Assembly: GCA_963702895.1 (NCBI GenBank)
Contig: OY969767.1
Span: 192,001 to 256,000, forward strand
Source: an uncultured Elusimicrobia bacterium
Lineage (GTDB): Bacteria; Elusimicrobiota; Elusimicrobia; 2-01-FULL-59-12
Length of the DNA stretch: 64,000 bases
Direction of reading: 5' to 3'
Shown here: in pieces, positions 29,919 to 47,279 of the stretch
How the letters are laid out: every line of letters begins with the position of its first letter
Numbering within the stretch: position 1 is the first letter of the stretch
Notes under the pieces: generated by a model
Databases searched by the model: none
The model's input: only the letters and a program-made list of their open reading frames with translations
Told to the model about the DNA's origin: nothing
Position numbers and translations under genes: made by a program

Positions 29919-30007
29919 TTAAGTGATGGGCGTGATTAGGTGATTAAGTGATTTAGTGATTAGGGGATGTCCCCTAATCACCCAATCACCTAATTACTAA
30001 ATCACGC
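29911..30007. repeat. Inverted 8-mer tandem repeat (GTGATTAA/G ... TAATCAC)
   Basis: Direct reading; similar array at 45494-45840. Confidence 0.85.
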
Positions 30008-30024
30008 ACAAACAAGGAGGATGT

Positions 30025-30546
30025 ATGGACATCGAACGCAAGAATGGAACAACACTCAAAGGGAACCCCTTTACGCTTCTCGGCGCCGAAGTCAAGGTAG
30101 GCCAGAAGGCGCCGGAGTTTACAGCGCTCGCGGGAGACCTCTCGCCCGTGACGCTGGCCTCCAGTCAAGGAAAGACGCGCATGTTCGTCTGTGTGCCGTC
30201 CTTGGATACGCCGGTCTGTGAGTCGGAGACCCGCCGGTTCAACGAAGAAGCCGCCAAACTCCCCGGTGTGGAAGTGTTCGTGATTTCGGTGGACCTTCCG
30301 TTTGCGCAAGGGCGCTTCTGCCAGACCGCCGGCATCCAGAACGTGAAGTGCCTCTCCGACCACCGCGACACGTCCTTCGGCAAGGCTTACGGCACCCTCA
30401 TCAAGGAGCTCCGGCTTCTTTCCCGCGCAATCTTCATCGTGGGCGCCGATGAGAAGGTCCAGTACGTGGAGTACGTCAAGGAAGTGACCAGCCACCCGAA
30501 TTACGACGCGGCTCTTGGTGCGCTTAAAGCGGGAGCGACCCGCTAA
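30025..30546 (+). CDS. tpx: Thiol peroxidase (Tpx)
   Basis: PSLDTPVC, SVDLPFAQ.RFC, RAIFI; AGGAGG RBS. Confidence 0.95.
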   Translation: MDIERKNGTTLKGNPFTLLGAEVKVGQKAPEFTALAGDLSPVTLASSQGKTRMFVCVPSLDTPVCESETRRFNEEAAKLPGVEVFVISVDLPFAQGRFCQTAGIQNVKCLSDHRDTSFGKAYGTLIKELRLLSRAIFIVGADEKVQYVEYVKEVTSHPNYDAALGALKAGATR

Positions 30547-30693
30547 CCGGAAATCTTCGGTTCATTTTGCCTCATCGTCTGAACTCGATGCACTTTTTTG
30601 TGCCGTCACCCCGGCGAAAGCCGGGGTCCAGTTCAACGACGATGGACTGGATCCCGGTTTTCACCGGGATGACGACAGCTGCAGATTCCCGGC
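30546..30693 (+). mobile_element. 148-bp MITE, copy 1 (intact; empty intron target at 30680/30681)
   Basis: TA|ACCGGAAATCTTC...GCAGATTCCCGGC|TA with an internal CGTC palindromic doublet; near-identical copies elsewhere in the window. Confidence 0.88.
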
Positions 30694-30703
30694 TAAAACA
30701 AGT

Positions 30704-30784: not shown

Positions 30785-30965
30785 TATTGTTCATCACCTC
30801 AAATCAGATTGTCTTTTGGATCTCTTTTCAAGACCCGATCATCCCTAGGCCTATTGGTGCCCTGATATTTAGCCTTCCGCTCTATCGTCCCGCCGCCTGA
30901 AATCCGATAAACTTTCCCAGTTGGATCGGGAGGGGGCGAGCTATCTCGATGGCTCGTCCGCTTTT

Positions 30966-33900
30966 ATGCTTAAACATCACCTCAATCGACTCATCGCTCT
31001 CCTGCTGGTCCCTTGTCTCCTGGCTGACCCCGCGGCCTCCGCGGCTTCAGGCCTGCGGGTCCCTGCCCTCACAGTCTCATCCATCGAACACTCAGCCCGG
31101 ATGGCGGCGTTCAACGAGCAAGCACTGGTCGCCGTCGCCTTAGGCAGAACCCGTTCCATTTTGGATAGAGGTGTTCCATTCTTTTCGGGCCTGGCAAGAA
31201 AGATGGGGCTGGGAACCTTCCTCAGGCCGATCGCCGCCCCGCCCACAGGACACTTAACTGACAGAGGATCTCCCAATGCGTTAGTGACAACGTCCCTGGC
31301 GGGATGGCTTTACAGCCGTTTGCCGGAAGGCCGCTTGCGCGCCTGGGTGGGGACGCGGCTGGGGCCGCGTCGGGAAAATCGGCGGTATTTATACCGCGCG
31401 GCCTTAGCAGCCGTCGGCCACACGATAGCGCTCTTGATCTTGGCCAAACTGCCCGTCCAATCCATCGCTCGAATGAGCAACGGCGATCGCCTCTCGATCC
31501 TCACGATGCCGGATCCGAGCCCCGCGTACCTCCCCCTGGAAAACTTTATTTGGACAGCAACAAGGTGCTTCCTGGAAGATCACGACGAGGTTTTCTACGG
31601 CACAGCGCGCGACACCCGACCCCTCGAAGCCGGTGATAGCGCTAGGTTTGAGCGCCGCGCGTGGCTGTTCGCCAGGCAATTTTCAATTCTTCTGGATGGG
31701 GCCGTCCAAAAGAAGTTCGGGATCTTCCGGCTACTTTGGCTAGCCGCCGTCGAGCTCCGTGGTGCCCTGCGGCGGGCGGACCGGCTGCACGGGACGCATA
31801 ACACGCTGGGGCGCAAACACGGCACGGCTTTGCTGATGGCCAAAAAGGGAGGGAGCACGACAGGCTTGCCGCAAGCCAAAACCGCGCACACAGCCGGGCA
31901 GGATTCAGCGGATGAACCCAGAAGCCCTGCTGGGACCGGCGCAAAGCGGGCGGGATATTCGTTCTCTGTCATCGCACGGCTTTTGCAGACGCTCAAGGGC
32001 AATCCCGTTCGTGCTCGCACATTTTCAAGACAGCATCATCTCAACTTTGTGTCCAGGATTAGCCGAAACCTCCTAGTTCTTGAAAGTTGGGGCGTGGTCG
32101 AGCCAACCTCCGATCAACCCGGGACGTATAGGCTCACCCCGAAGGCGCGCCAGAAATACCGAGTGATCATGGCCTTGTTTATGCCTTTTCTAAAAGTCGG
32201 TCGAGGCAACCCCAGCATAGCGATTCGCGAGGCCCGGGATCATGCGATCGCTGAGTTGAAGAGGATGGGATTCCAGGTGACCTTAACGCCGCCTGCCGTG
32301 GTTCGGACTGCTCGAGCATCACGAATATCAGCCGCGGCACCCGAAGTGACGCCGGCGACGATCGAACGGCGCCGGGAGAGGGCGCCTCGAGATATCCGTC
32401 CCTTTCGCAACCTGGGTTTGCGTATTCATAGATATCGGCTATTGCGGAACCTTACCCAGCGCCAACTGGCAGAGCTTGTCGGTCTCAATAAACAAGATAT
32501 TGGCAACATGGAATACGGGCTATACGCTCCTCGCGATACCGTCTTAGCGGCACTCGCGTTGATTTTGATTGACGACCTACAGGAACGCGATCAATTTAAG
32601 AATTGGGCAAAGAAACGGCGAGGCACGCCGTCACATGAGGATCGCAGATTCGCCCTTTGGGTGCGAATTCGCAAGGCCGGTCAATCCGGACATACGTTGC
32701 AGAGAATGTCGGAGGGAGTCCTGAAGAATGAATTGGCAGAGCTTCCTTCCTCAACTCTTGACGCACCAGAATGCTTGATGGACATGATTGAAAAAAACCC
32801 AGATATCCTCGCGGGCCTCCATCAGTCTCAGAGGGTCCGTGCATTTGTCGACTGGTATCACGCTGTGGATACCGCTTATCGCAATCGACAGAAGGGCGGC
32901 CACAAGCCCCTGCATTCTCTGTTCATTTTTGACAAGGACCTCTCGCCAAGAATTCTGGATCGAAGGAAGAGTGAAGCGAAGCAAATGATGAACACTTTGT
33001 TCCAGGAGGTGCTTCTTGAGCGTCATCAGAGACTCTCACCTCCCGGGGTCAGTCATCCGGGACGTTGGGCGAGGCACTCTCTAACCGGCGCCGCCTTCCC
33101 GGGTACCGGGGCGCAATCCATTCAACAGAAAGCGGCCCAGGACTTTCAACAACGGCTCGACGCCGCCCTGGCACAGAGCCGGACGGTTTTGACTGAAGCG
33201 GAAACCCGGTGGGCATCCGCGCTGGCAGCCCTTGGGAATCGAGATTTCGTGCAAGCCATAACCGAAGCGGATCGGGCGCTCGCCCTGGCGAAAGCGGCCA
33301 TGCACGGGGGAGCGAATCCAGAAACCGGACAACCGCTTTGCGGACTTGAAACGATTCGCGTGACAGCCGAGCTCCGCCAGATGACCGATCTGGCTCAACA
33401 GATTGAAACCTTGGAAGAAAAAACGAAGACTTGGATCACAAGCCGGGCACAAACCCGCTCCGCTCTCTTTGACCTGTCAGAAATGGCTGCGCACCACGGA
33501 TCCATGACTCGTCTTGACCGCGCCCTATGGGATGCGGTTCGTTTCGCCATTATCGCGTCCGACATCATCGAACCAATGCGTCAAGAGCAGCTGGACGAAT
33601 TGCGCGGGCGGCATCCGGCCAACGGCATTGATGGTTTGATCCATTTGATCAACCTGGTCCTCCCGATGGCCGTCCCTGGGCTCCTTGAGCCCGCGATCAT
33701 GATGGTGACGGAGGGTTTGTTGAAATCCTCTCTTCTTGCCGACAAAATCCAAGGACCCACGCCAACGCTGCACATGCTTACCGGACATTCGCCCTCGTTC
33801 ACATCGCGAGCAACCAGAGTGGATCGGGCGCACGACAAACTGGTGGCAGCGGTCGTCTACTTGATCAAAGCAGACGTCGATGTGCGTCGCTTGTTCATTA

Positions 33901-36900
33901 ACATTTTCCCGGAACATCAGTCCTATCTCCCGACAAACACCGCCATCGGCTCTCACGACGATTCTCCGGAATCCGATCTTGTAGCCTATCGCCTAGGGAT
34001 TGCAAGTATGGGAGGAGATCCTAATCGACGGGAGCCCTACAGCAGCGTCGAGGTTGCTGCGTTGCAGCCTCCCGGCACCGACCGGCATATCCCCTATAAC
34101 ACAAGTTATCGGTTTGGGGAGGTGCTGCGTCGGATTAAAGCCCTCCACAATGGGGAGGGCCTGCCGCTCCCGCCGCCGGGTGGAGATGCGCAGGCCGTCA
34201 CGACTCAGGATCCCCTTGTTCCGCCTTCAGTCGGTCCGGCGACAGAAACACTTGCGTCTCCACCGCCGTACTCCCAGATCATGAAGGAGCGCGCATCCAC
34301 AATGTCCTCACTTCGCGATGAGGCGGTCACAGCCCTGCGCGAAGAGGCTTTAGCGGAAAATCATCTTGAACACGCGAAACAAGCTGTCGGCAGACGCGAT
34401 ATCCCAAGCGCAAAGGATGCCCTTAGCGCGGCATTAGCGAAAGTTCATGCAGCGCGGACAGCGGTGGAGACTATTCTCTTTCGCCCAGCGGATGAAGACC
34501 TTGCTCAAGAGCTGCGCAAGGATGGAGATCGTCTGGACAAGCTCATTGCTTATTGGCTTCCGGCAGATCAGGCCTTAACCGAAATGGTGGCAATTTATCC
34601 CCATCGCGCTTCTATTGACAATAATCCAGAGGCTGGAGTCCTTATCGAATCGGTGCTGACCAAGATGGCTTCAGGTGGAAAAATTGATCAGGAAGAGGTC
34701 GTCGGCCTGGTGGCGGTGCGGAAGGCAATTCGAATGTCTGCTGAGATTCCTGCTGCCTCCCCGGCAAAAACGCTGGCCGCTCCTACGCCAAAGGTTGATC
34801 GGAACGACAAGAAGAGGGCCTCTCAGAAAGGCGGTGCTCAACGGAGGGCCAAGAAGAAACTCATGCCCAGCCCCGTGCTCGATGCGGACGGAAGGCTGCA
34901 GGAAACGGATTTGGCAGTCGATGTGCCGTATATCCTTTTGCGGCGGCCCGCTGAAGGCTCGCAGTCCTATGGCTGGGAGATTTATCAGTCGCAAGGTCTT
35001 GATCCAGAGCGGTCCAAGCTCATCGCCACACTTCTTTCTCACGGGGAAGAAACCCACCTGCGGAGCGAACAGCAGCCTGGGCGGGAGACCAAGAAGGTCC
35101 CGAAATCCTATTCCTTTATACGGCTGGAAATACGCAGGCATTCAACTGAGGAAGAAACATTCTTCATCGGGCGCAGCCGTCGCCGTTCCGCGGCCATCAT
35201 TTTAGATCCCAGCCTCTTTAAGCCGGGCAAGGAAGTCAATCTCCAGGGAGCACTTTATCAAGCTGGCGGGTGGCTTGTGCACGGGCAGGATAGGACTGAG
35301 GAAGAACTGACCGCGCAAACCTGGATGGCGCTTTTGAGTCGAGTGCCCTTGGAGGCATTCCTCACAGCCTATGGACATCTGCCGCTGGCTCCGCGCGGCG
35401 AAGGAACTACTCCGCAGGCGACAACCCTGAGAGAAGTGTTCAACGCGCTCTTCAGAGACCAAATGGGCCTGTCGGAGCGCGCTCTTCGGGACCGAGCGGA
35501 TGCGCACCATCCTGAACACGCTGATCTGACTTTCTTGATGGAGGGGATCGTGAGTGCGGTGTTAGATGAACTCTACCGTCAGTTTCCAGAGCTCTTCAAA
35601 ACAAAGCGCCGCTATTGGATGCCAGTCGGTGTCCCTCCTGGTGCGCCAGAAGCGCTCACTCCTGAGCGCCAGATTCTCCATCAGATTCTCCAGCAGATGC
35701 TCGACAGCATGAGAGAAGAGGCTAACGAGGCGGTCGCTGACGATCCTACGCTCGACGCGCTGGATTACCAAGACTTGGTGCGTCGGATGCAAGTTGCACT
35801 CGATAAGCCCGATGCCCTTCAGCGCTTAAGAAATCATATACAAAGGGTGCTCACAATGGATCAATCCCGAGCATCTCGACGGCTCGCTCAACACAAACAG
35901 TTTCAGTTCATCCGATGGTGGGTTGTGCCGTCCGCGCCATCAAAAACCGGTTTCTTGGACTTTGACACCCCTCAGCCCGACCCCGGGGAGAGCCCCTGGT
36001 GGATTGCGCCGCTCGCGCCATCAGAAACCGGTTCCTTGGACTTTGACGCCCCTCAGCCCGACCCCAGGGAGAGCCTCATCAGAGAGCTGGAAAGCCTTCA
36101 TCTCCCACAACTCGGTTTGCCCAGCCAGTTGCTGCATGCGTATGTTGCCATGTCCATCCAGCAACTCGAGAATGGAAGCACCATAAAAGTGCTGGCCTCT
36201 TTGCGCTCGATTAGAGCTCAAACCCCCGTCGAGAGCAAAATTAGCAACGTGCTGATCCAAGAACCGATAAATAGTACAGCTGCCAACAACTTAACACCTC
36301 TCGAAGATAGCATCGTTTATTTTCTGTTTCTGTTGACCCTTGGCGGGGAAACCTTCCGGAAAGCTGTCGCCATGTTTTTCGCATCCGCTCAACTGCCGCC
36401 TGAGATCCTGCAGCTTCTCATCCCTAAAGATTGTCCCGAATTAAACGAATGGAATGAGAAGAGACGCTCTGGTAGAACAAAAACGCTCACTGATGTAGAA
36501 CTTGTGATCGCACGTAAAGCCGTCGGGAGTGACTTTGCATTCAGTACCCCAGCTCTCACTGACTCGGAAAAGGAAGCGCTTCAATATCTGCGTCTTCGCG
36601 AGATCGAAATCCTCCCAACACACCGAATACCTGGCGTGGTTCAATTCCCGGCAGTAAGGAAAGCGCCCCGTATCGTCCGGACGGTCCCTCCTCGTTCTAC
36701 TACGCTCAGTATGAATGGAATCTCGGAACTGGTTTCAATTGGCCAGCAATATCCCCTCGTGAGCTTGGCCGGGCTTGGTTTGTGGTGGGCTGCGATGTTT
36801 CACGCCACCGTCCCCATGATTCTCTTCTGTGGAGCGGCGGTCTCCATCGCCATCTACCGGGCCGACAGCCTCGGTCTATCTCATCCTTCCACACCCGCAA

Positions 36901-36947
36901 CTGCCAGCCACTCGCGTTCCAGGCGCCATTTCATGGCCGCCGCCTGA
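30966..36947 (+). CDS. Giant (~1990 aa) orphan protein: signal-like N-terminus, winged HTH, XRE-type HTH, helical region, C-terminal TM
   Basis: Uninterrupted ORF; LIALLLVPCLLADP; LGLRIHRYRLLRNLTQRQLAELVGLNKQDIGNMEYG (HTH_3). Confidence 0.75.
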   Translation: MLKHHLNRLIALLLVPCLLADPAASAASGLRVPALTVSSIEHSARMAAFNEQALVAVALGRTRSILDRGVPFFSGLARKMGLGTFLRPIAAPPTGHLTDRGSPNALVTTSLAGWLYSRLPEGRLRAWVGTRLGPRRENRRYLYRAALAAVGHTIALLILAKLPVQSIARMSNGDRLSILTMPDPSPAYLPLENFIWTATRCFLEDHDEVFYGTARDTRPLEAGDSARFERRAWLFARQFSILLDGAVQKKFGIFRLLWLAAVELRGALRRADRLHGTHNTLGRKHGTALLMAKKGGSTTGLPQAKTAHTAGQDSADEPRSPAGTGAKRAGYSFSVIARLLQTLKGNPVRARTFSRQHHLNFVSRISRNLLVLESWGVVEPTSDQPGTYRLTPKARQKYRVIMALFMPFLKVGRGNPSIAIREARDHAIAELKRMGFQVTLTPPAVVRTARASRISAAAPEVTPATIERRRERAPRDIRPFRNLGLRIHRYRLLRNLTQRQLAELVGLNKQDIGNMEYGLYAPRDTVLAALALILIDDLQERDQFKNWAKKRRGTPSHEDRRFALWVRIRKAGQSGHTLQRMSEGVLKNELAELPSSTLDAPECLMDMIEKNPDILAGLHQSQRVRAFVDWYHAVDTAYRNRQKGGHKPLHSLFIFDKDLSPRILDRRKSEAKQMMNTLFQEVLLERHQRLSPPGVSHPGRWARHSLTGAAFPGTGAQSIQQKAAQDFQQRLDAALAQSRTVLTEAETRWASALAALGNRDFVQAITEADRALALAKAAMHGGANPETGQPLCGLETIRVTAELRQMTDLAQQIETLEEKTKTWITSRAQTRSALFDLSEMAAHHGSMTRLDRALWDAVRFAIIASDIIEPMRQEQLDELRGRHPANGIDGLIHLINLVLPMAVPGLLEPAIMMVTEGLLKSSLLADKIQGPTPTLHMLTGHSPSFTSRATRVDRAHDKLVAAVVYLIKADVDVRRLFINIFPEHQSYLPTNTAIGSHDDSPESDLVAYRLGIASMGGDPNRREPYSSVEVAALQPPGTDRHIPYNTSYRFGEVLRRIKALHNGEGLPLPPPGGDAQAVTTQDPLVPPSVGPATETLASPPPYSQIMKERASTMSSLRDEAVTALREEALAENHLEHAKQAVGRRDIPSAKDALSAALAKVHAARTAVETILFRPADEDLAQELRKDGDRLDKLIAYWLPADQALTEMVAIYPHRASIDNNPEAGVLIESVLTKMASGGKIDQEEVVGLVAVRKAIRMSAEIPAASPAKTLAAPTPKVDRNDKKRASQKGGAQRRAKKKLMPSPVLDADGRLQETDLAVDVPYILLRRPAEGSQSYGWEIYQSQGLDPERSKLIATLLSHGEETHLRSEQQPGRETKKVPKSYSFIRLEIRRHSTEEETFFIGRSRRRSAAIILDPSLFKPGKEVNLQGALYQAGGWLVHGQDRTEEELTAQTWMALLSRVPLEAFLTAYGHLPLAPRGEGTTPQATTLREVFNALFRDQMGLSERALRDRADAHHPEHADLTFLMEGIVSAVLDELYRQFPELFKTKRRYWMPVGVPPGAPEALTPERQILHQILQQMLDSMREEANEAVADDPTLDALDYQDLVRRMQVALDKPDALQRLRNHIQRVLTMDQSRASRRLAQHKQFQFIRWWVVPSAPSKTGFLDFDTPQPDPGESPWWIAPLAPSETGSLDFDAPQPDPRESLIRELESLHLPQLGLPSQLLHAYVAMSIQQLENGSTIKVLASLRSIRAQTPVESKISNVLIQEPINSTAANNLTPLEDSIVYFLFLLTLGGETFRKAVAMFFASAQLPPEILQLLIPKDCPELNEWNEKRRSGRTKTLTDVELVIARKAVGSDFAFSTPALTDSEKEALQYLRLREIEILPTHRIPGVVQFPAVRKAPRIVRTVPPRSTTLSMNGISELVSIGQQYPLVSLAGLGLWWAAMFHATVPMILFCGAAVSIAIYRADSLGLSHPSTPATASHSRSRRHFMAAA

Positions 36948-37355: not shown

Positions 37356-37532
37356 GGCTCACCTCCAGGTAGTCCTTGTGCTGATGATCCGTATGACATG
37401 TACCGTCAAGGACCTCTGCGCCTAAACCATACGAAAGGCACGTTACAGCGACGTTTCGCGCTTGTTACAGGTCTGTAAATCTTTTTAAGCCGGTGGATAG
37501 GACAGAAAGAGTCGTCTTAGCCGGGAATCTGC

Positions 37533-39414
37533 GTGCGCCAGGACAAACTGTACTGAGCCCAGTGGATGAAAGAGCCACAGCCTAAGGCCTAGCCAGCCAA
37601 GGCATAGCTCGTCTTGCATCGACGGCCGTGAGGCCGGAGGTGAAGCGTAGACAAGTGACAACGCAGGCCGCAAGGTGATAAACCGATCGAGCCCCGAAAA
37701 GAACGGTCATGTTGTGGAAGCCGAGGCGGTGCAGTTAGCCGAAGGCAACAAGGTTCTCGCCAAGACGGCAGGGATAGAGCCTTTCCACCGGGGTCTTACG
37801 AGGGCGGCATGTGTTGAAGGGACAGTGACGGGACCTGGGAGGCCTGCTGGGAGTCCGCTGAGGCGGACGCCGCCAACCCGAGGGACAACCAAAGGGAAAC
37901 GGACCGGCAGGAGTCAGAGAACCCCATAGTACCTAAGAAGCGGGTAACGACCGTGGAGGGAAGGGGGCGACAGGAGGAGGAAGCGATGGAGGGACAGGGA
38001 GCTGATTCACAGAAGTCAGAGACTTCCTTAACGAAACTCCGGCGCGTAGCGGAGCAAGCGAAGCAGAATCAGAAGATGCGCTGGATATCGGTCAATCACC
38101 TGATGGACGTCGACCTTCTGCGGGACAGTTGGAAGCGTCTTGACAAGGGTGGAGCCAGCGGGGTGGATGGCCAGACGGCGCAGGCGTACGGTCAAGACTT
38201 AGAAAAGCGGCTGGAAGAGCTTCACGAGCAACTGAAGGCAGGGACGTACCGGGCACCGCCGGTAAGGCGGGTGTGGATACCCAAATCGGACGGCAGGCAA
38301 CGGCCGATCGGGATACCGACGTTGGAAGACAAGATAGTCCAGCGGGCGGTCGCCACGATCATGGAAGCCGTCATGGAGCCGTTGTTTCTGGAGAGTTCGT
38401 ACGGGTACCGGCCTGGGCGGAACGCCCATCAGGCGTTGTGGTCCATACAACGGACGCTGATGTATCAGCCGATCCACTGGGTGCTGGAGATCGACCTGGA
38501 GTCGTTCTTTGACACCTTGGATCACGGATGGCTGAGACGGATGGTGGACGTACGGATGGGCGATGGGGTGATCCAGCGGCTGATTGGGAAATGGCTGAAC
38601 GCGGGAGTGATGGAGGAAGGAAGGCTGACGCGAACGGACCAAGGGAGCCCGCAAGGCGGGGTGATTTCGCCGATGTTGGCGAACATCTACCTGCATTACG
38701 CGATAGACCTGTGGTTTGTGAAGGTCATCCAACCGAAGCTCAAGGGAGAATCGTGCGCATGGCGATATGCGGACGATATCCTGATGGCGTTCGAGCATGA
38801 AGCGGAGGCGCGCGAGGTCCAAAGGCAGCTTGGGGAGCGTTTGGCGAAGTTTGGCCTAAAGCTCAACCCAAGCAAGACACGTCTGATCCGGTTTGAGAGA
38901 CCCCGGGACACAAACGGGGACGACCCGCCGGATCGGAGCGCGTTCGACTTTCTGGGGTTCACGCACTACTGGGCGAGGAGTCGACGAGGGATGTGGGTGG
39001 TGAAGCGGAAGACCGCTGGGAAGCGATTACGGCGGGCGATGAGCGCGGTGACGCAGTGGTGCAAAGCGCACCGGCACTGGAAGCTCCGCGAACAGCACCA
39101 GCACCTGAATGCGATTCTTCGAGGGCATTATCAGTATTACGGGATGACCTGGAATTGGGTTGGATTGAGCGTCTTCCACTTACATGTGGTCAGAACGTGG
39201 CAGAGATGGTTGAGCCGCCGGAGTCAGACGGCTTACATTCGCTGGGATCGGATGGAACAGATCCTGGAGAACTATCCCTTGCTACCTCCACGAATTATTC
39301 ATCCTGATCCATGGCGCATGGCACGTGAGTCCTTTTCTTGAAGAGCGTCGTGCGGGAAATCCGCATGCGGCGTTCCGTGAGGGGGTGGGAGGGCGACCTC
39401 CCGCTCTACTCGAT
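37533..39414 (+). mobile_element. Group II intron (1882 nt)
   Basis: 5' GTGCG; domain V GAGCGTCGTGCGGGAAATCCGCATGCGGCGTTC (39343-39375); domain VI with bulged A; 3' end ...CTCGAT; exons rejoin precisely. Confidence 0.95.
37986..39341 (+). CDS. ltrA: Group II intron reverse transcriptase/maturase, no endonuclease domain
   Basis: GVDG, RPIGIPT.EDKIVQ, SYGYRPGR, PQGGVISP.LANIYL, YADD, FDFLGF, X domain; GGAGG RBS. Confidence 0.93.
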   Translation: MEGQGADSQKSETSLTKLRRVAEQAKQNQKMRWISVNHLMDVDLLRDSWKRLDKGGASGVDGQTAQAYGQDLEKRLEELHEQLKAGTYRAPPVRRVWIPKSDGRQRPIGIPTLEDKIVQRAVATIMEAVMEPLFLESSYGYRPGRNAHQALWSIQRTLMYQPIHWVLEIDLESFFDTLDHGWLRRMVDVRMGDGVIQRLIGKWLNAGVMEEGRLTRTDQGSPQGGVISPMLANIYLHYAIDLWFVKVIQPKLKGESCAWRYADDILMAFEHEAEAREVQRQLGERLAKFGLKLNPSKTRLIRFERPRDTNGDDPPDRSAFDFLGFTHYWARSRRGMWVVKRKTAGKRLRRAMSAVTQWCKAHRHWKLREQHQHLNAILRGHYQYYGMTWNWVGLSVFHLHVVRTWQRWLSRRSQTAYIRWDRMEQILENYPLLPPRIIHPDPWRMARESFS

Positions 39415-39680
39415 AGTTGTCGTCATCCCGGTGAAAACCGGGATCCAGTCCATCGTCGTTGAACTGGACCCCGGCTTCCGCCGGGGTGACGGCACAAAAA
39501 AGCGCATCGAGTTCAGACGATGAGGCAAAATGAACCGAAGTTTTCCGGTTAGTGGTTAACGGGGCAAGGCCCGGCGGAGGACGGTTTTTAGCGGATCGGG
39601 TCCAGGGAGGACATCGAACGGAGGTGCGCCGGCTTCTGTTCGAGCATACAACACAATCTCTTCCCATTCACTTTTCTGAG

Positions 39681-43296: not shown

Positions 43297-44151
43297 ATGA
43301 GGAACCTAATCCGACTACGTTTTATTTCGTCATCCCGGCGAAAGCCGGGATCCATCATGTTCTTTGCATCGATGATAGACCCCGGCTTCCGCCGGGGTGA
43401 CGTCTGCGTTGTGATGCTATGCCTGGTCGCGGCGCTCCTGACGGGATGCGCGACGGTGCCCTACACGCAGCGTCGTCAGTTTAATCTCCTCTCACAAGCG
43501 GAAGAAGACCAGATGGGCGCCCAGGCCTACGCGGAGGTGAAAGCCAAGAGTCCTTTGTCCAAAGATGCCGGCCTCAAGGCGCTTGTCAGGCGCGTGGGAG
43601 AGCGCATCGCGGCCGTCGCGGACAGGCCTAAGTTTCAATGGGAGTTCGTCGTCATTGACGAGCCCAAGACCTTAAACGCCTTTTGCCTGCCGGGAGGGCG
43701 CGTGGCTGTCTATACGGGAATACTCCCGGTGACCCAAGACGAAACGGGTCTTGCGGTCGTGATGTCGCATGAGGTGGCCCACGCCTTGGCGCGGCACGGA
43801 GCAGAACGCATGAGCCAGCAGATGGCCGTGGGACTGAGCGAACAACTGGCGGTCAACGCGGGACTGATTAAGAGTCCAACAGGGATGCAAATCTTTGAGA
43901 TGGCCTATGGCATCGGGGTCGGCCTTCCCCATAACCGCAGCCAGGAAAAAGAAGCTGACAGGATCGGACTTATTCTCATGGCGAAGGCGGGATACGACCC
44001 TCGTGAAGCCATCCCCTTTTGGCAGCGCATGAAAGCGGCGGCTGGAGGACAAAAGCCTCCCGAATTTCTCTCCACACACCCCTCGGACGACACACGCATC
44101 CAAAAAATACGCGAAGCTCTTCCTGAAGCCCTCACCTACTACAAACCGTAA
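43297..44151 (+). CDS. M48 family metallopeptidase lipoprotein
   Basis: LTGC lipobox, NAFCLPGG, HEVAH, EADRIG, FLSTHP. Confidence 0.93.
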   Translation: MRNLIRLRFISSSRRKPGSIMFFASMIDPGFRRGDVCVVMLCLVAALLTGCATVPYTQRRQFNLLSQAEEDQMGAQAYAEVKAKSPLSKDAGLKALVRRVGERIAAVADRPKFQWEFVVIDEPKTLNAFCLPGGRVAVYTGILPVTQDETGLAVVMSHEVAHALARHGAERMSQQMAVGLSEQLAVNAGLIKSPTGMQIFEMAYGIGVGLPHNRSQEKEADRIGLILMAKAGYDPREAIPFWQRMKAAAGGQKPPEFLSTHPSDDTRIQKIREALPEALTYYKP

Positions 44152-44292
44152 CGGAGTATCGGAGTAACGGGGTATCGGAGTAACGGAGTAACGGGGTATC
44201 GGAGTAACGGAGCAACGGCGCGCTGGTGTTTTGGCATAACAACTCATCATGGAGCTTTGACTCCGACACTCCGATACGCCGATACTCCGATA
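44147..44292. repeat. Inverted 8-mer tandem repeats (CGGAGTAA/T, about 9 units ... ACTCCGAT, about 4 units)
   Basis: Direct reading; lies between convergent genes. Confidence 0.88.
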
Positions 44293-45361: not shown

Positions 45362-45596
45362 GGTTGTTGTGTGTCTCCTAGTTTGTTGAATTGCCGATCA
45401 AAGTGCGATATCCAAGGTAGGCCAAAAAACTGCAGCGAACAGGGAATCAAGCCTTCGAAGCGGGTACGACAAAGTCATTCTACTATATATTGAGCGTGAT
45501 TAAGTGATTAGGTGATTAAGTGATTTGGGTAAGGCGTGCTGATAGCAGTAAGGGTTCTGTTGGGACTGGAGAGCATAACACAAGGATGTTCCCCTA

Positions 45597-45792
45597 ACCA
45601 GAAATCTTCGGTTCATTATGCCTCATCGTCTGAACTCGATGCACTTTATTGTGCCGTCACCCCGGCGAAAGCCGGCCCTCCAGACGCCGGGCGGGCCGGG
45701 TCGCCGGACTTGTGGAGACCCGGGGTCCAGTTCAACGACGATGGACTGGATCCCGGTTTTCACCGGGATGACGACTACTGCAGATTCCCGGC
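45597..45792 (+). mobile_element. 148-bp MITE, copy 3, carrying a 48-bp nested insertion (empty intron target at 45779/45780)
   Basis: TA|ACCAGAAATCTTC...GCAGATTCCCGGC|TA; inserted in the 8-mer array; length 196 = 148 + 48. Confidence 0.88.
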
Positions 45793-45833
45793 TAATCACC
45801 TAATCACTTAATCACGCCCAGAAATCACGCCCA

Positions 45834-47279
45834 TCACGCCAATTTCTTTGCCAGGATTTGGTTGGCAAGCTGGGGATTGGCTTTGCCCTGGCTTTTCTTC
45901 ATCACAAGACCCACCAAGGATCCGAGGGCGCGTTCTTTGCCGCCTTTGTACTCTTCGACCGCTTTGGGCATCTCCTGGATCGCCTCATCGCACCATTTGC
46001 TGATGGCGCCTTCGTCCGCGACTGCCGTGAGACCTTTGGTTTTCACAATCTTCTCGGGCGAGCCGCCCGTATCAAACATTTCACTAAAGACATCCTTGGC
46101 TGTTTTGCCCGTGATGGTCCCCTTTTGAATAAGCCCCACGAGCTCGGCCAGGGCCTCGGGAGAGACGGGAGATTCCGAAATGGTCTTTTTGGCGGCGTTG
46201 AGCTTGCCGGCCAGCTCGGTCGTGATCCAGTTGGAGACGGGTTTGGCGGCGCCTGGTCCTGATTTTGCTACGGCGGCTTCAAAATAGGCTGCCAAGGCCT
46301 TGTCGCCCACCAGGACCATCGCGTCGTACTCCGTCAATTGATACGCACTGACGAATCGGGCTTTCTTCTTTTCGGGAAGTTCTGGGAGTGTCGCCCGGAT
46401 CCCGTCCAGGAAGGCAGAGGTCAGGTTGATCGGAATAAGGTCGGGCTCCGGGAAATAGCGGTAGTCATGGGCCTCTTCTTTGGACCGCATGCTCTCCGTG
46501 ACGCCGCGGGCCTCATCCCAGAGCCTCGTCTCCTGGATGATGCGTCCTCCGGAGCCCAGCACTTCCTGCTGGCGCTTGATCTCATAGTGAAGGGCCTCTT
46601 TCACGGCTTTAAAGGAGTTTAAATTTTTGATCTCGGCTTTGGTCCCCAGGATTTTCTGGCCCACCGGGCGAAGTGAGATGTTGGCGTCACACCGCAAGGA
46701 CCCTTTTTCCATATCGCAGTCGGAGATATCGAGGTACTGGAAGACCGCTTTGAGCGCGGTGAGATACACATAGGCTTCTTCGGGACTGGCCATGTCCGGC
46801 TCGGAGACACATTCGGCCAGCGGCACGCAGGCCCGGTTTAAGTCCACGAGCGAGTAGTCGAGCTCACGCGCGCCGATGGCATGGAGAAGTTTCCCGGCGT
46901 CTTCTTCCATGTGGATCCGGTGGATGCGGATGGTCTTGGGCTTTCCACCGTCACCGAGGATATCGATCTTGCCGCTGCGCGCCAGCGGCAAATCGTATTG
47001 AGAGATCTGATAGGCCTTGGGCAGGTCCGGATAGAAATACTGTTTGCGGGAAAAGACCGAGTGGGAGGCAATTTCGCAGCCCAGGCCAAGCCCCGCCCGC
47101 ACCAGGAGCTCCACCGCCTTCTTGTTCAGGTAGGGGAGCACGCCGGGGTGCCCCGTACAGACAGGGCAAATCTGGGAATTGGGCTCTGCTCCGAAGCGGG
47201 TCGAGCAGCGGCAGAAGAGTTTCGACTCCGTCTTCAGCTGGACATGGACTTCTAATCCAATCACGGGCTCTAAGGTCAT
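45834..47279 (-). CDS. gatB: Asp/Glu-tRNA amidotransferase subunit B
   Basis: IGLEVHVQL, YFYPDLPKAYQISQ, EEDAGK, DYRYFPEPDL. Confidence 0.98.
   Translation of the reverse strand: MTLEPVIGLEVHVQLKTESKLFCRCSTRFGAEPNSQICPVCTGHPGVLPYLNKKAVELLVRAGLGLGCEIASHSVFSRKQYFYPDLPKAYQISQYDLPLARSGKIDILGDGGKPKTIRIHRIHMEEDAGKLLHAIGARELDYSLVDLNRACVPLAECVSEPDMASPEEAYVYLTALKAVFQYLDISDCDMEKGSLRCDANISLRPVGQKILGTKAEIKNLNSFKAVKEALHYEIKRQQEVLGSGGRIIQETRLWDEARGVTESMRSKEEAHDYRYFPEPDLIPINLTSAFLDGIRATLPELPEKKKARFVSAYQLTEYDAMVLVGDKALAAYFEAAVAKSGPGAAKPVSNWITTELAGKLNAAKKTISESPVSPEALAELVGLIQKGTITGKTAKDVFSEMFDTGGSPEKIVKTKGLTAVADEGAISKWCDEAIQEMPKAVEEYKGGKERALGSLVGLVMKKSQGKANPQLANQILAKKLA

Follow-up and report, generated by a model that had tools for sequence, protein, structure and literature searches.

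How does a group II intron whose encoded protein lacks an endonuclease domain come to lie exactly at the inner edge of the terminal inverted repeat (TIR) of a dispersed non-coding repeat, and what does it recognise there? The question is raised by a 64,000-nt stretch of DNA from an uncultured Elusimicrobia bacterium, here called the window, which corresponds to C1:192001-256000 (C1 being contig OY969767.1 of assembly GCA_963702895.1) of a single-contig 2.72-Mb genome with 57% G+C. At positions 37533..39414 of its forward strand, a 1882-nt group II intron interrupts a short repeat that resembles a miniature inverted-repeat transposable element (MITE). Coordinates below are those of the window unless they carry the prefix C1 or are called genomic. 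The combined evidence of exon flanks, copy number, base pairing and relatives makes it very probable that the element is a mobile group II intron of IIB-like type without an endonuclease, that its homing site is the TIR of a MITE-like repeat superfamily, and that it is targeted there by base pairing.

Anatomy of the intron and its junction with the terminal inverted repeat

The element at 37533..39414 is a complete and intact group II intron, running from a 5' GUGCG (GTGCG in the DNA) to a 3' AU (..CGAT), with scores above the cut-offs of both Rfam and NCBIfam; the boundaries proposed by an earlier sequence-only reading of the window are confirmed. The domain I core of the ribozyme (37569..37803, forward strand) matches the Rfam family RF02005, group-II-D1D4-6, at 131.7 bits (cut-off 49), and domains V and VI (39341..39414, forward strand) match RF00029 at 43.9 bits (cut-off 40). 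Domain IV holds the gene for an intron-encoded protein (IEP; 37953..39341, forward strand), a reverse transcriptase/maturase of 462 aa when read from a GTG codon, or of about 451 aa from the ATG at 37986, with a YADD motif. It scores 355.9 bits against the NCBIfam profile TIGR04416 (group II intron reverse transcriptase/maturase; cut-off 300), and RVT_1 is its sole Pfam match (E 5.7e-35). The DNA-binding/endonuclease (D/En, HNH) region that would follow domain X is absent: the IEP stops at residue 462, and its relatives measure 437-490 aa.

The intron divides a MITE-like repeat of 152 bp precisely where its 15-nt TIR meets the repeat body. The 5' exon (37518..37532, forward strand) is the TIR itself, TAGCCGGGAATCTGC, and contains two intron-binding sites (IBS), IBS2 (GCCG, 37520-37523) and IBS1 (ATCTGC, 37527-37532); the 3' exon (39415..39551, forward strand) comprises the other 137 nt of the repeat, begins with IBS3 (A, 39415) and ends in the second TIR (..TTTTCCGGTTA). 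Joined across the intron, the flanks TAGCCGGGAATCTGC and AGTTGTCGTC.. are letter-for-letter equal to empty paralogous sites, for example at genomic positions 433171 and 1066346, and the start of the 3' flank, AGTTGTCGTCATCCCGG.., is contiguous with TAGCCGGGAATCTGC at many other places in the genome. Within the window, 39415-39555 is 96% complementary to 30540-30680 (135 nt at 97% identity by BLAST). Two uninterrupted copies lie here, both on the minus strand: one of 152 bp at 30544..30695, whose cognate site at 30680/30681 is empty, and one of 200 bp at 45595..45794, which has an additional module inside and an empty site at 45779/45780. Both sites, which had already been described as unoccupied, carry ATCTGC/A (the slash marks the insertion point), and many further cognate sites are empty across the genome.

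Three intron copies occupy the same site in different members of the repeat

Searches with BLAST, with domain V and with tblastn each recovered exactly three copies of the intron in the genome: copy 1 at C1:229533, in the window, following TAGCCGGGAATCTGC; copy 2 at C1:463116-464997, following TAACCGGAAATCTTC; and copy 3 at C1:1961796-1963677, following TAGCCCGGAATCTTC. A fourth candidate at genomic position 179897, where TAACCGGGAATATTC precedes GTGCGCC.., was discarded as a variant of the repeat body that has neither an IEP nor a domain V. In keeping with the boundaries expected of such introns (5' GUGYG, 3' AY), all three copies have flanks equal to empty paralogous sites, and they retain an unbroken 462-aa open reading frame (ORF). 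Each directly follows the TIR 15-mer TA[AG]CC[CG]G[AG]AATCT[GT]C with 0 mismatches, and the sequences farther upstream are unrelated; the TIR of a multicopy repeat, proposed as the landing site from the window alone, is hence a real homing site, used by 3/3 copies and, as described below, by the one close relative.

Every copy lies within a TIR-bounded element, and composite intron-bearing elements of 2034 and 2078 bp retain both TIRs. These features are what one would expect if the intron had inserted once and had then been multiplied by transposition of the repeat that carries it, as the sequence-only reading had considered. The sequences of the copies and their hosts render such passive spread very unlikely. 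Copies 2 and 3 differ from each other at 1 of 1882 nt (both are 94.5% identical to copy 1), whereas the repeats that host them share only 66% identity across 185 aligned nt of the 3' exon and differ at 3 of the 15 TIR positions; near-identical introns in diverged hosts therefore indicate separate homing events. Copy 1 resides in a different repeat subfamily, at another kind of TIR: the hosts of copies 2 and 3 belong to a subfamily whose body starts with CATYGGCCAG... and of which empty members are present at genomic positions 647556 and 2408508. The guide nucleotides of the two intron sublineages also differ in step with the occupied site, as homing would predict, and an insertion that severs the TIR from the body should impair transposition of the carrier. 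On these grounds, carriage by the repeat gives way to repeated homing as the account of the three copies.

Regarding activity, the single-nucleotide difference between copies 2 and 3 argues for recent movement only. Public sequencing runs recorded as containing the stretch include none of RNA, and the best DNA run has 0.26 of its words; the exon junction is unbridged in read-derived contigs, which hold only short fragments of related introns and of the repeat.

Base pairing between the intron and the terminal repeat

In the alignment to the Rfam covariance model, GUGCAGUU falls within the terminal loop of a conserved hairpin, the one that carries exon-binding site 1 (EBS1). The EBS1 of copy 1 is GCAGUU (intron nt 199-204; 37731..37736, forward strand), so that the loop assignment of GCAG at 37731-37734, made earlier from the primary sequence, holds. 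In copies 2 and 3, the corresponding hexamer is GAAGAU. Copy 1 pairs at 5/6 positions with its own site (GCAGUU with ATCTGC), and copies 2 and 3 at 6/6 (GAAGAU with ATCTTC). EBS3, which bulges from the closing helix of subdomain Id, is U in copy 1 (intron nt 264; 37796, forward strand) and G in copies 2 and 3. Between copy 1 and copies 2/3, both guides covary with their sites: the change of C37732 to A accompanies that of CTGC to CTTC, and the change of U37796 to G accompanies that of the exon +1 base from A to C. As for EBS2, which the sequence-only reading had failed to find, we can offer a weak candidate, CGGU (intron nt 172-175; 37704..37707, forward strand), in the single-stranded stretch after GAGCCCCGAAA where relatives have their EBS2; it forms 4 bp with exon positions -13..-10, a length at background level. 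Of the 15 TIR bases, 10-11 are engaged by these pairings, along with the first base of the repeat body, which would explain why the insertion falls at the inner TIR edge.

The same assignments were examined across the intron family, in a fixed register, using 80 metagenomic relatives with about 50% IEP identity together with two genomic loci, L024 and L005, whose exons are described below. Sequence-only nhmmer end profiles (24 and 35 of the 80 loci) were replaced by motif anchoring. A 5' end was identifiable at 36 of the 80 metagenomic loci and the hairpin motif at 24; the remainder were left out of the counts. A first regular expression for the 3' end located 1 locus, and the 3' ends, with their +1 bases, were read by eye for 11 metagenomic introns among 13 loci, with L054 and L111 left out as their tails stop short of the intron end. 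Of the 23 introns in which the hairpin could be recognised, 22 pair their EBS1 with their own exon at 5/6 or more; among the 506 non-cognate combinations, 35 reach that level. EBS3, taken as the base after CYGGGGUC, is Watson-Crick complementary to the +1 base in 16/16 cases (U-A, A-U and G-C). The EBS2 zone of the family is the single-stranded stretch just after GAGCCYCGAAA; at least 5 bp are formed there by 17 of 31 cognate pairs (55%) versus 28% of 924 non-cognate ones, with clear cases reaching 6-9 bp.

A rhizobial intron of the same D1D4-6 type, L170 (Sinorhizobium meliloti pSymB, locus 1021-2916), has an apparent start of GUACG instead of GUGCG. Its EBS3 is G and its exon +1 base is C; the two fit, and the EBS3 position therefore holds across phyla.

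Target supply and the role of chance

The bare 7-mers formed by IBS1 and IBS3 are common, with 261 empty occurrences of ATCTGCA and 549 of ATCTTCC in the genome, and this abundance speaks for an intron that retrotransposes to any CTKC/N-like site, the three insertions into repeats being coincidental. The placement of the insertions speaks otherwise: the intron sits at the same offset in the same 15-mer in 3/3 copies here and in 1/1 in a second genome. From the site counts, the probability that all three copies would fall at TIRs is estimated at ~2e-5 (17/262 x (9/551)^2). Extending the motif upstream, 14 of the 18 empty RCCG-N3-ATCTGC/A sites are TIRs, and no match outside a TIR is occupied, whether of RCCG-N3-ATCTGC/A (0/4) or of RCCG-N3-ATCTTC/C (0/5). 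Coincidence is thus extremely unlikely, and we reject it on the site counts.

Seven further empty TIR sites belong to a subtype ending in ..GGGAAACTGC/A (..AAACTGC/A) and pair at 6/6 with the EBS1 of copy 1. All lie in repeat ends (genomic positions 290622, 445337, 891954, 1427889, 1523094, 2427250 and 1522256), and copy 1 occupies none of them. Since the EBS1 of copy 1 is a perfect match to this other TIR subtype, the site that it occupies in the window is a near-cognate one.

Close and distant relatives of the intron

A search of 185,579 species genomes recovered a single close relative, L024, in a metagenome-assembled genome (MAG) of the Elusimicrobiota that belongs to the class of the window's genome and to another family. 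Its IEP is 80% and its intron 81.6% (nucleotide level) identical to those of the window, and it is single-copy in its genome. L024 directly follows TAGCCTGAAAAGTTC, a perfect 15-nt TIR of a 654-bp TIR-bounded element (the inverted 15-mer lies 654 bp away, the intron discounted). Its 3' exon is made of repeat modules that have 49 matches in the same genome, where paralogous empty ends are also present. Both EBS3 and EBS2 fit the site; the EBS2 pairing has 5 bp (CAGGU with GCCUG) and includes, relative to copy 1, a compensatory change from C-G to A-U at -10. Across the four insertions, which are independent of one another, the TIR motif is found in the 5' flank of 4/4 close introns with 0 mismatches, and T is present at position -15 in 4/4 sites (copies 1-3 and L024).

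Farther out, the picture differs. None of the 36 distant introns (35 metagenomic, with about 50% IEP identity, and L005, with 58%) matches the TIR motif within 3 mismatches. L005 (genome G021) lies after ..TGCCAGGAATCTGGGGACA, a string that resembles the TIR with an offset of 6 nt. Both its EBS1 and its EBS3 match its own exon, and its 3' exon consists of repeat modules; a relation to a TIR edge could not be shown for it. Close IEPs (E up to 1e-150) were found in 0/10 genomes of the window genome's own family and in 2/401 sampled genomes of the phylum, the window's included, many of these genomes being fragmented MAGs in which repeats are unassembled. The IEP family as a whole is large: upwards of 7,900 proteins reach E 1e-60 or better, and five IEPs from the protein search (P0001-P0005) are 81-91% identical. 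TIR homing is thus the trait of a narrow lineage inside a large and ordinarily retargetable intron family.

Intron class and the hairpin formed by the repeat

IEPs that lack the endonuclease domain occur in classes A, C, D, E and F/g1-g4 (PMC3552965). The sequence-only reading had drawn an analogy to class IIC introns, in which a DNA hairpin is recognised, and several observations lend themselves to a structure-directed intron that reads the single-stranded hairpin of the repeat plus a few base pairs of sequence. As single-stranded DNA (ssDNA), the 152-nt copy folds into one long hairpin of -39.7 kcal/mol (z -6.5; 0/200 shuffles as stable) with the TIRs as its basal stem, and the insertion point coincides with the inner edge of that stem. 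The IEP is without an endonuclease, like those of IIC introns, and L024 sits at the equivalent TIR position despite an EBS1 that pairs at only 3/6.

Set against this are the guide elements themselves. By its 6-nt EBS1, its EBS3 and its family-typical EBS2 zone, the latter two also seen in relatives, the intron is IIB-like and not IIC, and hairpin recognition would therefore not be required. No hairpin is common to the three 5' exons upstream of the site, and the host bodies of copies 2 and 3 differ. The fold moreover pairs IBS2 and most of IBS1 with the other TIR, locking the target bases in the basal stem, where it would compete with the intron instead of presenting the site. In a PDB search, IIC reverse transcriptases were no nearer to the IEP than LtrA, all at ~1e-42, and distant introns of the same RNA type lie in diverse sequences, each pairing with its own EBS1. 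We accordingly regard recognition of the hairpin as distinctly unlikely, and the IIC analogy is not supported. The weak EBS1 match of L024 leaves open a small role for other determinants, such as contacts of the IEP with the distal 5' exon.

The best plasmid matches to the IEP, at 43-49% identity, are rhizobial and other IEPs. The S. meliloti pSymB record contains one D1D4-6 (RF02005-type) intron, with an IEP 45% identical to that of the window, and two D1D4-3 introns (RF02001, not RF02005), with IEPs 35-38% identical. The latter two are presumed by us to be of RmInt1 type, one of them adjoining an oxidoreductase gene (compare the oxi1 site).

Observations that weigh against targeting by base pairing, and the proposed mechanism

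Several results do not sit easily with homing into the TIR by base pairing. The EBS2 of copy 1 amounts to 4 bp (CGGU with RCCG, -13..-10), which equals the non-cognate mean of 4.1, and at the site of copy 3 only 3 bp are formed, after a 1-nt shift. The EBS1 of copy 1 is itself imperfect at its own site (5/6), and that of L024 pairs at 3/6 only with its TIR site; either the L024 copy is stranded or decayed, or a factor other than EBS1, for instance protein contacts with the distal 5' exon, steers the lineage to the TIR. The TIR motif is also not enriched in the genome of L024, with 13 hits versus 19 for the reversed control. In the window's genome, most cognate sites are empty, so mobility would be low, slow or recent. 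Judged by GC skew, replication starts near 0 and ends near 1.38 Mb, and the predicted lagging-strand template accordingly holds 2/3 copies only (1 and 2, not 3), a sample of three being too few to conclude from. Finally, a scan of TIR pairs revealed no transposase bounded by the repeat TIRs in the genome, and the terms MITE and MITE-like are therefore structural labels only.

With these points taken into account, targeting by base pairing is still the reading that we favour. The excised intron RNA would recognise the TIR by pairing EBS1 (nt 199-204) with exon positions -6..-1, EBS3 (nt 264) with the first base inside the repeat body and, probably, a short EBS2 (nt 172-175) with positions -13..-10, and would then reverse-splice between the TIR and the body. 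The dozens of non-coding repeat copies could serve as many harmless target sites, and the two sublineages, 94.5% identical, carry different EBS1 and EBS3 letters suited to two variants of TIR and body. The sequences themselves show the anatomy, the pairings with their covariation, and four mutually independent insertions that keep to one site. By analogy with the endonuclease-less introns RmInt1 and RmInt2, we infer reverse splicing into DNA, cDNA priming at replication forks, current activity and a benefit to the intron. The mechanism is ordinary EBS/IBS retrohoming, and no new mechanism is revealed.

Comparison with known systems

The nearest precedent comes from S. meliloti GR4, in its intron RmInt2: according to excerpts of PMC4615759 and PMC5894124, all seven RmInt2 copies lie in the inverted repeats of the insertion sequence (IS) ISRm17, both inverted repeats are targets and 4 bp of EBS2 pairing are enough. 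The strategy is already described, which lessens the novelty of the reusable landing pad that the sequence-only reading had proposed, while the reusable homing site at a repeat end itself is upheld. As in RmInt2, an endonuclease-less IIB-type intron takes as its natural target the TIR of a multicopy transposable element, is found in several copies in different members of that element, and relies on EBS1, EBS3 and, probably in the present intron, an EBS2 of only about 4 bp. Unlike the autonomous IS that hosts RmInt2 in those excerpts, the host here is a short, non-coding MITE-like superfamily without a transposase of its own, and two intron sublineages carry different EBS1 and EBS3 for different TIR variants. 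The mobility of RmInt2 is reported there from experiments, whereas the present intron is known from sequence alone.

The two introns also appear not to be close relatives, the RNA being of D1D4-6 type here and of D1D4-3 type in the pSymB introns that we presume to be RmInt1-like.

RmInt1 itself, in ISRm2011-2 (IS630 family) of S. meliloti, combines EBS/IBS pairing with IEP contacts to the distal 5' exon (excerpts of PMC5894124), and T at -15 is critical for it (excerpts of PMC4615759). It is likewise an endonuclease-less intron in a multicopy mobile element, and the T at -15 recurs in all four sites described here; it would differ in intron subtype, and the excerpts of PMC5894124 place its target within the IS and do not assign it to a terminal repeat. 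For bacteria at large, excerpts of PMC4424553 list three target strategies (homing sites, terminators and attC sites), with many introns located among other mobile DNAs. Class C (IIC) introns, as outlined in the same excerpts, resemble the present intron in being endonuclease-less, intergenic and directed to an imperfect inverted repeat; they use a DNA hairpin and a very short IBS1 with no EBS2, in contrast to the 6-nt EBS1, the EBS3, the EBS2 zone and the lack of a common upstream hairpin here. The nested group II introns of Methanosarcina acetivorans also possess a non-coding, self-renewing 'perpetual homing site', which in that case lies inside other introns rather than in a DNA repeat (excerpts of PMC4424553). 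Among dispersed repeats, Tobes and Pareja (2006) tallied, in the part of PMC1525189 consulted, a single group II intron, that of P. putida KT2440, located at a repetitive extragenic palindromic (REP) sequence in 2/9 copies. The same part describes IS110/IS1111-family insertion into REP and MITE sequences, a comparable sequence-specific invasion of a dispersed repeat; unlike the intron, those invaders are DNA recombinase elements and not retroelements. Searches of the open-access literature turned up no group II intron described as homing into a MITE or a REP.

With this case, the strategy known from RmInt2 and ISRm17, an autonomous IS in Alphaproteobacteria, is carried over to MITE-like repeats of uncultured Elusimicrobiota. 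The case also illustrates a way for a retroelement without an endonuclease to endure in a genome that is small (2.7 Mb) and dense in genes: its guides are aimed at the conserved terminus of a scattered non-coding repeat. The natural covariation of EBS1 and EBS3 makes it a clean textbook case of retargeting, and the positions of EBS1 and EBS3 and the zone of EBS2 are now pinned for the Rfam D1D4-6 type, which could aid annotation or targetron design.

The repeat superfamily and its other occupants

Scanning the genome for inward-facing TA[AG]CCNG[AG]AANNT[GT]C with 1 mismatch allowed, we identified 37 TIR-bounded elements of 116-362 bp, with length modes at 152, 166-168, 196-200 and 214 bp. TA is present at both ends of nearly every copy and may belong to the TIR. 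The bodies are mosaics of palindromic modules, some of which are found across the bacterial class. A search for an autonomous partner yielded no candidate, as every long TIR pair contains the intron, an IS110 element or two separate elements, and no DDE_3 (IS630-type) gene is present in the genome.

The genome also harbors five copies of an IS110-family element (347-aa ORF; Pfam DEDD_Tnp_IS110 and Transposase_20), two of them 99.8% alike and three of an 83%-identical variant, all outside the window (C1:645878-647239, 416562-417923, 671414-672637, 2232240-2233463 and 2427399-2428622). All five are inserted in the TIR that the intron uses, at a point about 2 nt upstream of the intron's own site, with TAACCGGGAATCT on one side of the IS and GCAGTTGTCG on the other; two unrelated mobile elements therefore share one 15-nt target. 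It is conceivable, if rather doubtful, that the 15-nt repeat end acts as a shared 'safe harbour' on which an EBS-guided intron and an IS110/IS1111-type element, both nucleic-acid-guided, have converged, that over evolutionary time the intron lineage has followed this harbour, keeping to the TIR in two bacterial families and re-tuning EBS1 and EBS3 to variants of TIR and body, and that both elements, as each insertion cuts a TIR off from its repeat, may curb the spread of the repeat. If true, this would amount to a three-layer parasite-on-parasite system, a speculative notion.

At C1:90169-91612, another 152-bp copy of the repeat is split by an insertion of ~1.3 kb between its positions 68 and 76; it seems that other elements often land in the repeats. 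A tandem array at C1:1380370-1380731 holds three incomplete repeat copies at a period of 105 bp, and in all three the cognate intron site is intact and empty. Throughout the genome the palindromic module GTCACCCCGGCGAAAGCCGGGGTC recurs, with variants, including at nine places in the window between 28715 and 54949. Among 30 related genomes searched, 9 contain the module at E up to 1e-6, some of them from other families of the class, and it is far commoner than the TIR-bounded elements built from it. Arrays of 7-8-nt tandem units are present at 44148-44234, 29927-30010 and 45795-45840, with GTAACGGA/GTATCGGA units at one place and GTGATTA-like units, as an inverted pair, at another; one of these arrays directly adjoins a MITE-like copy. 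Between the uninterrupted repeat copy and the intron, a forward-strand ORF of 2008 aa (30921-36947) contains internal 81-nt direct repeats (35916-36075).

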